Shown here piece by piece: positions 18,323 to 27,982 of a DNA stretch of 34,102 nucleotides (position 1 is the stretch's first letter; each line of letters opens with the position of its first letter). The DNA comes from an uncultured Bacillota bacterium. GTDB taxonomy: Bacteria > Bacillota_I > Bacilli_A > RF39 > UBA660. The DNA is taken from assembly GCA_900313725.1 (NCBI GenBank), contig OMSK01000030.1, positions 1-34,102 on the forward strand. The letters are read 5' to 3'. The notes beneath the pieces were generated by a model. The model did not search any database. It was not told the DNA's origin and saw nothing but the letters and a program-made list of their open reading frames with translations. The position numbers and the translations under genes were made by a program.

Positions 18323-19195
18323 TTAGTGTAAATCATTATTATCTAATTGTTTATTATTATCTTCATTAATTTGTTCATAATTTTGTTTTAAATTTTCTTT
18401 TGATTCCATAATTTTAGAAATTATTTTTTTTATAATTATTAAGACAATACCTATAGTTATTTCTAATATTCCTATTATTAATATTTGATCTAATTTTATT
18501 GTTATATTAAATTCAAAATTTTGTCTATTCATTATTTGTTTTACTATATAATTTAATATAAAATATAATCCACATATTAAAATTCCAACTGATATTAAAG
18601 AACTTCCAAATGTTGTCATCCATTTATATAGTGAACCATTTATTATCATTAGCAATATTACACATATTATTATTAATATTATCAATACAATTTGAATATT
18701 ATTTGATGTTAATTTTGCATATATTTTAATTGCTTCTGTAGGTGTATTACCTATTTCCGATTTCATATTTTTAAAACCATCATTAATGGTATTATAAATA
18801 CTATCATGTGTTTCTTGTGATTTCATTTCTGATTCTGTTAGTGGTGCACTTAATAAATTATTAACTGTTTCTTTATTATTTACACAATAATTTACTATAT
18901 TTTGTACCGTTTTTTCACTTACTTTATGATTATTATCAGATAAATAAGTCATATAATCATTTACAACATTATCTATTATTGTTTTAGCTTCTTGATTATT
19001 TATTATTTTATCTATTTCTTTTTCATTATCAATATTATTTTCTATATATTCAGATATAATTTTTTCTTTAGCTACTCCACCAATGATTTGCTTTTTAACT
19101 ACATTTTTAAATATTATATTTAAAGAAAAAAATAATAGTAAAACAAATAATCCTGTACTAATTATAAATGATAAAAAAACTCTTATGTATTTCAT
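18323..19195 (-). CDS. hypothetical membrane protein (N-terminal TM, soluble domain, 3 C-terminal TMs)
   Basis: Hydropathy pattern; AGGTGA RBS suits ATG 19195 (ORF track start 19204). Confidence 0.75.
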   Translation of the reverse strand: MKYIRVFLSFIISTGLFVLLLFFSLNIIFKNVVKKQIIGGVAKEKIISEYIENNIDNEKEIDKIINNQEAKTIIDNVVNDYMTYLSDNNHKVSEKTVQNIVNYCVNNKETVNNLLSAPLTESEMKSQETHDSIYNTINDGFKNMKSEIGNTPTEAIKIYAKLTSNNIQIVLIILIIICVILLMIINGSLYKWMTTFGSSLISVGILICGLYFILNYIVKQIMNRQNFEFNITIKLDQILIIGILEITIGIVLIIIKKIISKIMESKENLKQNYEQINEDNNKQLDNNDLH

Positions 19196-19227
19196 ATTTA
19201 TCACCTATTTAAGTATATCATAGTATT

Positions 19228-19257
19228 AAAAAAAAGTATATTTATTATACTTTTTTT
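19228..19257. terminator. symmetric intrinsic terminator after the noc-like gene
   Basis: AAAAAAAAGTATA-tttat-TATACTTTTTTT. Confidence 0.6.
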
Positions 19258-20869
19258 AATTTTTATCTATTTTAATTGTAAATTCATATGTTCCAGGTAA
19301 ATCTAATTCATCTGAATCAACTTTATAACCCATTCCCTCAATTTGTTTAATGCAATCTCTCATTGTATTAATTACAGTATTTAAATCTACTCTTTGTTGT
19401 TTATTATCAACTTCTGGCATTAAAGGAGTTAATTCTTGAGTTTCAGGTAATGGATAATTTGGTGTTGAAACAAATGGAGCTGGATTTACTTCTGGAATTG
19501 ATTGACTTGTTTCAAATGGATTAAATCCTCCTTGTGGTTGCTCTGGTGCTCCTCCAAATGGATTGAATGCTGGTGCCTCTTGTTGTACTGGTTCTGGTTG
19601 TGGTGCAGCTGGCGCTTCATTCATACTAAATGGATTAAATCCTCCTTGTGGTTGCTCTGGTGCACTAAATGGATTGAATGCTGGTGCCTCTTGTTGTACT
19701 GGTTCTGGTTGTGGTGCTGCAGGTGCTTCATTCATACTAAATGGATTAAATCCTCCTTGTGGTTGTTCTGGTGCTCCAAATGGATTGAATGCTGGTGCTT
19801 CTGGTTGTGCTGGTTCTGGTTGTGGTGCTGCTGGCACTTCATTCATACTAAATGGATTAAATCCTTGTGGTTGTTTTGGTGCTCCTCCAAATGGATTGAA
19901 TGCTGGTGCTTCTGGTTGTACTGGTTCTGGTTGTGGTGCTGCTGGTGCTTCATTCATACTAAATGGATTAAATCCTCCTTGTGGTTGTTCTGGTGCTCCA
20001 AATGGATTAAATGCTGGTTTTTCTGGTTGTACTGGTTCTTGAACACCAAATGGATTAAATGGTTCTTTTTCACCTACTCCATTATTTTGTACAGGTTGTA
20101 TATCTTGTGCATTATTTGCTATATTATCAATATTCATAAATCCAGGGTTTTGATTGTTATTTGAATTATCTATTATTGGTTCACTTGGTATATTAAAATT
20201 ATTATTTACTTCATTAAAATTATTATTCATATTATCACCTTTTTCTTCTTTTATTTCATTTTCGTTTGGATTCAATATACTATTAATTAATTGATCAGTT
20301 TTTCTAACTGTTAATCTTTCTTTAATTATTCTATTTAATATGTTTGGTTGTTCTTCTTTAGGCAATCTAAGTAATGATCTAGCATGTCTTTCAGATATTT
20401 GTTCTTCTAATAATGCTTCTTGAACTTCATCAGAAAGATTTAATAATCTTAACTTATTAGCTATAGTTGATTGAGTTTTTCCTAATTTAATTGCTAATTC
20501 TGATTGATTTAAATATCCCATATCAAGAATTTTTTTATAAGATAGTGCTTCTTCTATAGGTGTCATATCTTGTCTTTGAACATTTTCAGTTAATGCAACC
20601 TCAGCACTCTCTTTATCATCTATATCAGTTATAATTGCTGGTATAGTTTTTCTTCCAGCAATAACGCTTGCTTTATATCTTCTTTCTCCAGCTATTATTT
20701 CATATTTATCTGCAATTTTTCTAACAATTATTGGTTGAATAACACCATGTTTTTTTATTGATTCAGATAATTCTAAAATAGCTTTTTCATCGAATTTTAT
20801 TCTAGGTTGAAATCTATTTGGCAAGATATCATCGATATTAAGAATAAATACTTCTTTACGCATTCTCAT
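19256..20869 (-). CDS. noc: Noc-like ParB-family CTPase with large low-complexity insertion
   Basis: FQPR, IIAGERRYKA, ENVQRQD; HTH GKTQSTIANKLRLL..SERHARSL and C-terminal NTMRDCIKQIEGMG..EFTIKI are Noc-type; located after rsmG; start probably 20869 behind GAGGGG (ORF track start 20896). Confidence 0.8.
   Translation of the reverse strand: MRMRKEVFILNIDDILPNRFQPRIKFDEKAILELSESIKKHGVIQPIIVRKIADKYEIIAGERRYKASVIAGRKTIPAIITDIDDKESAEVALTENVQRQDMTPIEEALSYKKILDMGYLNQSELAIKLGKTQSTIANKLRLLNLSDEVQEALLEEQISERHARSLLRLPKEEQPNILNRIIKERLTVRKTDQLINSILNPNENEIKEEKGDNMNNNFNEVNNNFNIPSEPIIDNSNNNQNPGFMNIDNIANNAQDIQPVQNNGVGEKEPFNPFGVQEPVQPEKPAFNPFGAPEQPQGGFNPFSMNEAPAAPQPEPVQPEAPAFNPFGGAPKQPQGFNPFSMNEVPAAPQPEPAQPEAPAFNPFGAPEQPQGGFNPFSMNEAPAAPQPEPVQQEAPAFNPFSAPEQPQGGFNPFSMNEAPAAPQPEPVQQEAPAFNPFGGAPEQPQGGFNPFETSQSIPEVNPAPFVSTPNYPLPETQELTPLMPEVDNKQQRVDLNTVINTMRDCIKQIEGMGYKVDSDELDLPGTYEFTIKIDKN
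19514..20063. repeat. intragenic tandem repeat, 111-bp (37 aa) unit, about 4.5-5 copies
   Basis: AAATGGATTAAATCC recurs at 19514, 19628, 19739, 19850 and 19961; encodes QPEPVQPEAPAFNPFGAPEQPQGGFNPFSMNEAPAAP. Confidence 0.95.
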
Positions 20870-20900
20870 AACTATCTTTCCCCTCTTTATTATCATATTA

Positions 20901-20929
20901 ATGATACTATAATTTTAGTAAAATAGCAA
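20901..20929 (-). promoter_or_regulatory. putative sigmaA promoter of the noc-like gene
   Basis: TTGCTA (20924-20929), 17 bp spacer, TATCAT (20901-20906); lies downstream of the rsmG terminator. Confidence 0.55.
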
Positions 20930-20945
20930 TATTTCCCGGGAAATA
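20930..20945. promoter_or_regulatory. Noc-binding site (NBS) perfect palindrome
   Basis: TATTTCCCGGGAAATA, identical to the Bacillus subtilis NBS consensus. Confidence 0.85.
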
Positions 20946-20958
20946 ATTTTAAAAATTT

Positions 20959-20984
20959 AAAAAAAAGACTATTTAAAGTCTTTT
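20959..20984 (-). terminator. intrinsic terminator after rsmG
   Basis: AAAAGACT-atttaa-AGTCTTTT with a T-run on the minus strand. Confidence 0.55.
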
Positions 20985-21677
20985 ATTTTTTATTTCACTA
21001 TTTTTTCTTGGATATTTTTTATTAGTTTTTTTAATTTTTTCTACCTTAATAATTGTTCTATTACTTTCTTCAATAGGTAGTTGAAATCTATCAATTTTTA
21101 TTATTTTAGAATCTAATTTTTCTAATGCATTCCTACTTTCTTCAATTTCAGTATCAATATTTGCTTTCATAGCTATAAAATATTTATTTATTTTAACCAT
21201 TGGAATACTATATTCTAATAAAACAGATAAATGAGCTACAGCTCGAGCTGTTACTATATCATATTTTTCAATATTACTTTTAGCAAATTCTTCTGCTCTA
21301 TCATGATATACTTCTATATTATCTAATTTTAATTCTTTTATAACCTCTTTTAAAAATTCTATTCTTTTATTTAATGAATCTACTAAAATAACTCTTAAAT
21401 TTGGAAAAACTATTTTAAGCACTAATCCAGGAAAACCTGCTCCTGTACCTATATCACATAATGATTTTTCTTGTTTTAAATCTACTACTTTTGATAATAT
21501 AAGAGAGTCATAAAAATGTTTTAAAAATACTTGTTCTTTATCAGTTATATTTGTTAAATTAAATTTTTCATTCCATTCTACTAATAATTCATAATATTTA
21601 TTTAATTGTTCTAATTGATTATCATTTAATTCTATATTAATCTTTTTTAATTCTTCAATAAATCTATTTTGATTCAT
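20973..21677 (-). CDS. rsmG: 16S rRNA m7G527 methyltransferase
   Basis: KHFYDS, DIGTGAGFPG, VTARAV. Confidence 0.96.
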   Translation of the reverse strand: MNQNRFIEELKKINIELNDNQLEQLNKYYELLVEWNEKFNLTNITDKEQVFLKHFYDSLILSKVVDLKQEKSLCDIGTGAGFPGLVLKIVFPNLRVILVDSLNKRIEFLKEVIKELKLDNIEVYHDRAEEFAKSNIEKYDIVTARAVAHLSVLLEYSIPMVKINKYFIAMKANIDTEIEESRNALEKLDSKIIKIDRFQLPIEESNRTIIKVEKIKKTNKKYPRKNSEIKNKRL

Positions 21678-27381: not shown

Positions 27382-27410
27382 AAAAAAATCACTGTTAATA
27401 CAGTGATTTT
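27382..27410 (-). terminator. terminator-like hairpin between rpmH and rnpA
   Basis: AAAATCACTGT-taat-ACAGTGATTTT with T7 tail on the minus strand. Confidence 0.7.
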
Positions 27411-27411
27411 A

Positions 27412-27534
27412 TTAACGTGATAATACTTTACGTCCTTTTTTTCTTCTGTTATTTATAATATTAGTTTTCATTCTAGCAAAAAATCCTTGTTTTTTACTTC
27501 TTCTTCTATTATTTGGTTGATAAGTTCTTTTCAT
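27412..27534 (-). CDS. rpmH: 50S ribosomal protein L34 (not in ORF track)
   Basis: Translates to [40 protein letters not shown] (40 aa); AGGAGGTG RBS. Confidence 0.95.
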
Positions 27535-27577
27535 AGTACACCTCCTATAATATATAATTTATCGGCTTGCTCTTAAG

Positions 27578-27606
27578 ATTATATATGTTTTTTTATTATT
27601 TGTCAA
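27578..27606 (-). promoter_or_regulatory. rpmH sigmaA promoter
   Basis: TTGACA (27601-27606), 17 bp spacer, TATAAT (27578-27583). Confidence 0.85.
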
Positions 27607-27680
27607 TGAATTTTATTATTAAAATCAAAATAATTCATAGTAACATTATTTTATCAAATTTTTTTTAGAAAAAAAATAGT

Positions 27681-27924
27681 TGTTGATAATTTTATTTTAT
27701 TTAACATATTTTTTTACACATTAATTAATTTTCCACCATATAAATTTTATTTTAACCATTATTTTTTAATATTTTTTTATTTTCCACAATAAATGTAGAA
27801 AACTTTATTAACAATAAAAATATATGTTATTAATTTATCCACATATTTTGTGGATTACTACTTTTTATTTTATATTTTAATATTTTTTTATGGTGGAAAA
27901 CTTTTTATTTTATAATTTTCCACA
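27681..27924. other. oriC upstream DnaA-box cluster
   Basis: TTATCCACA 27835-27843; variants TGTTGATAA 27681, TTTTCCACC 27729, TTTTCCACA 27780 and 27916, TGTAGAAAA 27794, TGTGGATTA 27849, GGTGGAAAA 27892; gene strand switches here. Confidence 0.85.
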
Positions 27925-27982
27925 TTTTTTTGTTTATTTTTTAATAAATATAAGGTAAAATAAGTTTACAAGGTGATTAAGT

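Follow-up and report, generated by a model that had tools for sequence, protein, structure and literature searches.

What does a perfect Noc-binding site (NBS) do when it lies directly against the promoter of a noc-like gene, close to the replication origin? Noc is the textbook nucleoid-occlusion factor of Bacillota, which inhibits division over the nucleoid by anchoring NBS-bearing DNA at the membrane, and the model of its action rests on many scattered sites and on an N-terminal membrane helix. The site in question is located in a 34,102-nt stretch of DNA from an uncultured Bacillota bacterium (contig C15 of its assembly). This whole stretch is referred to below as the window. A preliminary description of the window had offered two readings: autoregulation of noc, or use of the Noc/NBS pair as an origin-proximal centromere in a lineage without adjacent ParA/ParB. 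Here, the site is considered together with the rest of the assembly (105 contigs, 1.15 Mb, 69% complete) and with 36 genomes of the same family (0.8–1.3 Mb, one per species). The latter are uncultured Bacilli, ‘Tenericutes’ or ‘Mollicutes’ MAGs from guts and rumens, including Candidatus Fimihabitans. Contigs of the studied assembly are labeled C and the compared genomes G.

An NBS in contact with the noc promoter

The sequence TATTTCCCGGGAAATA reads at 20930–20945 of the plus strand and is a perfect 16-bp palindrome. In the co-crystal with B. subtilis Noc, the 22-bp NBS duplex has the very same sequence at its core (PMC7383237), which bears out the initial designation of the site as the B. subtilis NBS consensus. 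The site and its surroundings comprise the following features:

20930–20945, no strand: NBS TATTTCCCGGGAAATA, proposed Noc nucleation site and operator; all 16 positions match; NBS or half-site at the equivalent position in relatives
20924–20929, minus strand: -35 element TTGCTA of the noc promoter, from the promoter scan (9/12 matches, 17-nt spacer); abuts the NBS with a gap of 0
20901–20906, minus strand: -10 element TATCAT, from the promoter scan; inside the family-conserved TATAGTATNAT
20880–20886, minus strand: ribosome-binding site (RBS) AGAGGGG, read from the sequence; 10 nt 5' of the ATG at 20869–20867
19256–20869, minus strand: noc-like gene, 537 aa, from profile, structure and family comparisons; ATG with RBS
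20973–21677, minus strand: rsmG (gidB), TIGR00138, E = 2.4e-51
20959–20983, minus strand: hairpin AAAGACT / AGTCTTT with a T-run, likely rsmG terminator, read from the sequence; overlaps the rsmG stop codon, 13 nt upstream of the NBS
27393–27982, no strand: rnpA-dnaA intergenic region, likely oriC; DnaA boxes at 27681–27924 and a GC-skew sign change near 28 kb

In Bacillota, rsmG (gidB) is the gene that precedes noc. Here, the two genes are separated by 103 nt, within which the minus-strand order is hairpin and T-run, 13-nt spacer, NBS, -35, 17-nt spacer, -10, RBS and ATG. Sequence and promoter scan agree on the placement of the palindrome against the putative -35, and this architecture is conserved in relatives. 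The reported location downstream of the rsmG terminator is likewise borne out by the visible, if weak, hairpin and T-run; the terminator scan had no entry at rsmG, because the stem contains fewer than three G-C pairs. Since the DnaA boxes cluster at 27681–27924 and the GC skew flips near 28 kb, the NBS lies ~6.5–7 kb from oriC, in line with the ~7 kb estimated at first.

Within the window, noc is followed by genes for a membrane protein, a small ORF and uvrB. The first of these (18323–19204, minus strand, directly 3' of noc) codes for a predicted 293-aa membrane protein with no Pfam family above the cut-off. It was considered as a conserved anchor and rejected, as the downstream gene varies widely among 80 related loci and is often uvrB.

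The noc-like gene codes for a Noc-type protein

The noc-like protein is composed of ParB_N and HTH_ParB domains (residues 7–198), a disordered linker (~205–490) and a Noc-type C-terminal domain (~491–537). The two N-terminal domains are readily detected (PF02195, E = 6e-32; PF17762, E = 3e-31). The best family is TIGR04285 (Noc), matched with 282.3 bits over profile positions 2–209, while the last 50 residues match positions 207–255 of this profile (18.5 bits, E = 1e-3). The protein falls below the curated TIGR04285 cut-off (282 + 18.5 versus 315 bits), with the profile split by the linker. As the C-terminal 50 residues correspond to the end of the Noc profile, we consider the protein a Noc split by a ~285-residue insertion. 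Among solved structures, it matches Geobacillus and Bacillus Noc best (7nfu, E = 1.8e-55; 7ol9). In an AlphaFold model made with 29 family sequences, the N- and C-terminal parts are confident (pLDDT 80–96 at residues 10–200) and residues ~207–490 are disordered. Across 29 family proteins, the CTP-motif residues GERR and ENxQR do not vary.

The specificity for NBS versus parS is set at Q158, K164, K169 and R186 in B. subtilis Noc, the counterparts in Caulobacter ParB being R, T, A and G (PMC7383237). According to an ungapped alignment to 7ol9, the noc-like protein has Q133, K139, N144 and R161 at these positions. Both specificity-switching residues are thus kept, and one of the two permissive lysines is changed to N (the third position is N, not K). 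Where parS-specific proteins have residues of the R173 ... G201 class, the noc-like protein has Q and R, and the paralogue encoded on C32 has R and G. The Q-K-N-R combination is the family norm, present in 70 of the 87 sequences that were readable by the motif pattern among 110 examined. We take the protein to be a Noc-type ParB paralogue that would read NBS rather than parS; this is one element of an overall explanation in which we place moderate confidence.

A lost helix and a gained linker

The N-terminal amphipathic membrane-targeting helix, which makes up the first ~10–15 residues of Noc, was not found in the noc-like protein, either in the alignment or across 30 family loci. When aligned with G. 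thermoleovorans Noc, residue 3 falls opposite residue 24, so that the start comes ~22 residues later, and in all 30 loci only a few codons separate the aligned start from the upstream in-frame stop. With this late start and the closed frame, the helix is absent. The N-terminus MRMRKEV is common to the genus relatives. By Adams et al. (PMC4331003), the helix is described as present in all homologues examined and as necessary for function. In its absence, any contact of this Noc with the membrane would need another element.

The linker contains one prominent feature:

19514–20039, minus strand: 111-bp tandem repeat, 4.7 copies, inside the linker; encodes 37-residue Pro/Gln-rich units

Length and sequence of the linker (19400–20270 in the window) vary widely among relatives. 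The noc frames range from 340 to 637 codons in the sampled family genomes, two of the 36 having given only a ParB match. The pattern NPGFMDIDxIxxxAxDI recurs in the linkers of 73 of 95 complete family proteins. A motif of the [KR]FFN[MFIL][FL] type is present in the linker of 41 of these 95 proteins, versus 0.1 expected from shuffled linkers, and is similar to the beginning of outgroup Noc proteins, four out of five of which have a short hydrophobic peptide at the N-terminus. The protein of the studied genome lacks the motif and has FNPF motifs (n = 11) instead; in the studied genus, the KFFNxF-type linker motif is replaced by 11 FNPF repeats. Long Cys/Trp/Gly-rich open frames on the plus strand opposite the linker (19502–20164 and 19563–20042) are by-products of the repeat, not genes.

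NBS elements in noc promoters across the family

Within the genus, an NBS-like site abuts the -35 element in five of six loci, at positions -74 to -76 relative to the start codon. The site is perfect in the studied genome, has one mismatch (TATTTCCCGGAAAATA) in the three closest species and two mismatches in one more; in the remaining member, G004, no NBS was detected at the noc promoter at ≤2 mismatches. The -35 position in relatives is occupied by TTGAAA, TTGATA or TTGTCA. In 35 of 80 additional related loci, the 400 nt upstream of noc contain an NBS (≤2 mismatches); elsewhere in these loci (~6.6 kb each) there was a single NBS, and the reversed control gave no match. The other 45 loci have no full NBS within the same 400 nt, so a full NBS at the noc promoter is not obligatory. 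Where full sites occur in relatives, they are positioned either at the promoter or, in other genera, 140–300 nt upstream, often inside rsmG, where they encode I-S-R-E-I.

Half-sites are more widespread. In 82 of 101 non-identical loci, ATTTCCC/GGGAAAT occurs within 150 nt upstream of noc. The density of half-sites in this region is 11.3 per kb versus 0.23 per kb in the rest of the loci, a ~50-fold difference. A half-site is present between -35 and -10 in 62 of the 101 loci. The consensus of 80 promoters anchored on the -10 element is TATTTCCCAAAA..A-TTGtAa-TATTTcCCAAAaTATAG-TATnAT, with two half-sites bracketing the -35. In the studied genome, the upstream half-site is completed to a full palindrome and the copy in the spacer has decayed. 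Five outgroup Noc genes, which encode Q-K-N-R and linkers of normal short length, lack the NBS 7-mer half-site over the 220 nt upstream; one of them has a bare GGAAAT 6-mer there.

The occurrence of NBS elements built into the noc promoter across a family appears to be a new observation. A limited literature search returned no published description of Noc autoregulation or of origin-restricted NBS, and the accessible text of Adams 2015 (PMC4331003) has no occurrence of ‘autoregulat’ or ‘noc promoter’.

A direct precedent for such an arrangement among ParB-family proteins is KorB, the CTPase clamp and repressor of plasmid RK2. According to PMC11790492, KorB operators are found 4–10 bp upstream of promoters, a 16-bp operator 4 bp upstream of the -35 gives 4–5-fold repression, and the proximal operator represses even when clamp closure is disabled. 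The two systems share a ParB-family protein and a 16-bp palindromic operator 0–10 bp upstream of the -35; on the minus strand of the window, the NBS ends at 20930 and the -35 starts at 20929. KorB differs in being plasmid-borne, in its operator, in having the clamp-locking partner KorA and in acting on many operons, whereas here only the noc promoter is implicated. By analogy with KorB, we favor, with some reservation, the explanation that the palindrome is a Noc loading site which doubles as an autorepression operator. Since the NBS touches the -35, its occupancy should hinder RNA polymerase. Autoregulation, one of the two original proposals, thus gains comparative support from the family-conserved position against the -35 and from the half-sites upstream (82 of 101 loci) and in the spacer (62 of 101). 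In principle, a site centred near -43.5 could also activate noc rather than repress it.

It might be argued that the palindrome serves for loading only, that touching the -35 leaves noc transcription unaffected, and that it was placed there because the short gap between rsmG and noc offers one of the few non-coding spots left of oriC. The full NBS located 140–300 nt upstream in other genera, often in rsmG coding sequence, would suit loading as well as an operator; selection therefore seems to favor an NBS near noc over an exact promoter position. Moreover, the other two NBS of the genome are not at noc promoters. However, loading alone does not account for half-sites that flank the -35 and occupy the spacer across many genera (62 of 101 loci, ~50-fold enriched), nor for the lack of the 7-mer half-site in the 220 nt upstream of all five short-linker outgroup genes. 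On balance, we regard a pure loading function as rather unlikely, and we retain the dual role of loading site and operator as the preferred explanation.

NBS are few and apparently located near the origin

The window contains one NBS match at ≤2 mismatches versus a mean of 0.01 in 100 dinucleotide shuffles. In the whole 1.15-Mb assembly, three sites match the 14-mer with ≤1 mismatch, compared with a mean of 0.05 for 40 composition-matched palindromes, none of which reached three. The hexamer CCCGGG occurs only five times in this assembly of 24% G+C, and two of the five occurrences are NBS. A chance origin of the NBS is excluded. Two further possibilities were considered and rejected. There is no hidden population of degenerate NBS, with five matches at ≤2 mismatches (mean 1.4 for composition-matched palindromes) and 23 at ≤3 mismatches (mean 27.7), and no genome-wide enrichment of half-sites, as ATTTCCC/GGGAAAT occurs 79 times compared to a mean of 117 for permuted 7-mers.

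Only three NBS in the assembly, those of the window, C91 and C75, rise above background, and further NBS may exist, since the assembly is 69% complete. Contig C91 carries recR, ybaB, dnaX, tadA and the 3' part of gyrA. Eight parS, four of them perfect, are located in the gaps around tadA, between dnaX and gyrA (C91:2328–3183), and a one-mismatch NBS with a CCCAGG core ends one base before the first parS. The second perfect NBS (C75:7915–7930) codes for I-S-R-E-I within an rsmI-like frame that precedes pth and mfd, and G001 has it at the equivalent place. Its use of the codons TCC-CGG in a genome of 24% G+C suggests selection at the DNA level. Like the NBS of the window, that of C75 has ATTT/AAAT flanks, and so does the one on C91, whose core is changed at one central position.

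The relative positions of these contigs were derived from synteny with G001. C91 very probably continues the window, because the window ends inside gyrB and G001 has dnaA, dnaN, recF, gyrB, gyrA, the parS array, tadA and dnaX in this order on one contig. With C15, C91 and C75 ordered accordingly, the parS array would very probably lie ~9–10 kb to the right of oriC. The same synteny places the NBS of C75 at a predicted ~16 kb to the right. In G001, which belongs to the same genus, ten one-mismatch parS at a regular spacing of ~37 bp (G001:C6:51530–51879) are accompanied by one perfect parS beyond tadA; this row is a plasmid-like tandem centromere array on a chromosome.

The 36 family genomes contain 96 NBS (≤1 mismatch), 0–7 per genome, counts that overstate independence because the relatives are kin. 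Sixty of the 96 are on the noc contig within 25 kb of noc, mostly 15–18 kb away on the far side of oriC, and a further nine are 13–26 kb from parB on other contigs. In near-complete assemblies, the NBS located near oriC or within 25 kb of noc amount to 7/7 in G016, 4/4 in G027, 2/2 in both G001 and G033 and 1/1 in G026. An NBS is found ≤2 kb from the parS array in seven of eight origin regions inspected. In G016, G017, G027 and G033, NBS alternate with the parS array between gyrA and dnaX; in G021 and G023, NBS and a single parS share the intergenic gaps between gyrA and dnaX; those of G036 are inside dnaX, 1.7 kb from the array. The NBS in the rsmI-like frame of G001 is 5.8 kb from the array. 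The outgroup G050 (complete, 2.4 Mb), with a Noc of 285–288 residues, has five one-mismatch NBS dispersed over 0.54–2.35 Mb.

The site, the rsmG-noc synteny and the Noc-type C-terminal domain are those of an ordinary Noc, which would have many scattered sites. The distribution of NBS in this family is different: three sites above background in the studied genome with no degenerate population behind them, and one to seven in near-complete relatives, all near oriC and clustered near noc. The protein also lacks the N-terminal amphipathic helix that Adams et al. (PMC4331003) describe as necessary for function. We therefore consider an ordinary Noc very unlikely. The preliminary description had associated this explanation with a canonical spo0J/parS system elsewhere in the genome and a chromosome-wide distribution of NBS. 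The former was found (parA-parB on C32, parS on C91), but the latter was not, the sites of relatives being confined to the origin region.

A canonical partition system in the same genome

The preliminary description had noted the lack of soj, spo0J and parS. This is correct for the window, whose contig has no parS even at ≤3 mismatches, but not for the genome. A canonical parA-parB (soj-spo0J) pair is located on C32 (8981–10625), beside tilS and ftsH and not after noc, and its ParB has the parS-type specificity residues R, I, R and G. Thus, in the rsmG-noc(-soj-spo0J) gene order expected near oriC, rsmG-noc is present, with soj-spo0J on another contig. In some family members, e.g. G027 and G016, soj-spo0J adjoin noc, an order kept in other genera of the family, while in the same genus they are found ~40 kb from noc on one contig. 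An SMC gene is located on C68. For cell division, there are two genes with a DivIVA domain and an FtsZ gene divided between two contig ends (contigs C20, C100, C4 and C90). For MinD, the model matched only ParA, below the cut-off, in this 69%-complete assembly.

These findings bear on the second original proposal, in which a lineage without ParAB uses Noc/NBS instead of ParB/parS as its origin-proximal centromere and for loading SMC. The proposal agrees with the absence of soj, spo0J and parS from the 34-kb window and with the restriction of NBS to the origin. It is contradicted by the parA and parB on C32, the latter with parS-type R-I-R-G residues, by the eight parS on C91 and SMC on C68, and by the parB ~40 kb from noc on one contig in the same genus. 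We find such a takeover hardly credible. As soj/spo0J, SMC and eight parS are all present, Noc/NBS has not replaced ParABS. Nevertheless, an origin-specific role of Noc beside ParB still appears likely, because the sites are origin-confined and interleaved with parS in relatives.

The hexamer CCCGGG is a common restriction target. The alternatives that a different factor binds the palindrome, or that a restriction-type sequence resembles an NBS by accident, can practically be dismissed, given that all 16 positions match the NBS, that the ATTT/AAAT flanks are seen again at C75 and, around a core with one central change, at C91, and that the site adjoins a gene whose product has the NBS-reading residues.

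DISCUSSION

From the sequence features, their rarity and their conservation we infer the following course of events for the operator and loading site proposed here. In this lineage of uncultured low-GC gut Bacilli, Noc would have lost its N-terminal helix, gained a long disordered linker and have only a handful of NBS, all flanking oriC. In the studied genome, these would be the NBS in its own promoter, ~7 kb left of oriC, the one beside the parS array, ~10 kb right, and the one in the rsmI-like gene, ~16 kb right. Noc dimers would nucleate at the NBS, where they would probably form closed CTP clamps and spread across the origin region alongside ParB. Occupancy of the promoter NBS would hinder RNA polymerase at the -35, resulting in negative autoregulation of noc. 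S. aureus Noc spreads 8–10 kb from each site and restrains replication initiation (PMC5540599). If spreading were similar here, oriC would be covered from the three NBS at about -7, +10 and +16 kb.

The system shares with the Noc-NBS systems of B. subtilis and S. aureus an identical 16-bp site, ParB_N and HTH domains with the CTP-motif residues, the Q and R specificity residues, the Noc-type C-terminal domain and a gene that follows rsmG near oriC (PMC4331003, PMC5540599, PMC7383237 and PMC8429893). In contrast to these systems as described there, the studied Noc has no N-terminal membrane helix and has ~285 extra disordered residues between its domains. The number of NBS also differs, with ~3 here versus ~41 loci in S. 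aureus and a distribution over two-thirds of the chromosome in B. subtilis. Furthermore, the sites do not extend beyond ~25 kb around oriC, and in relatives they alternate with parS; sites are found in the promoter of noc itself, and soj-spo0J are not adjacent. In some respects the arrangement resembles chromosomal ParB (Spo0J)-parS, where the palindromic loading sites are likewise few, lie in clusters near the origin and sometimes form tandem arrays, and where the protein is a paralogous CTP clamp. However, chromosomal ParB has R...G residues where the protein studied here has Q...R, and a separate canonical ParB is present, together with ParA, in the same genome.

Noc in this organism probably controls its own level and works beside an ordinary chromosome-partition system. 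Tentatively, and at somewhat less than even confidence, a broader role can be proposed for the family: Noc may no longer act as a division inhibitor across the whole nucleoid and may be a second, origin-specific clamp that loads at parS-interleaved NBS and at its own promoter, represses itself, and through its linker couples the origin/centromere to the membrane, the divisome or the initiation machinery. Both pillars of the Noc model, scattered sites and the membrane helix, are missing in a whole gut-bacterial family, even though the DNA-reading residues persist and the site is unchanged. The family thereby offers a natural test of what a Noc clamp is capable of without a membrane anchor, as well as a simple system in which autoregulation by a chromosomal ParB-family clamp can be tested. 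There may also be a link to the role in replication initiation reported for S. aureus Noc (PMC5540599). If the proposed role is true, the origin-specific Noc clamp would represent a distinct functional class within the ParB/Noc family.
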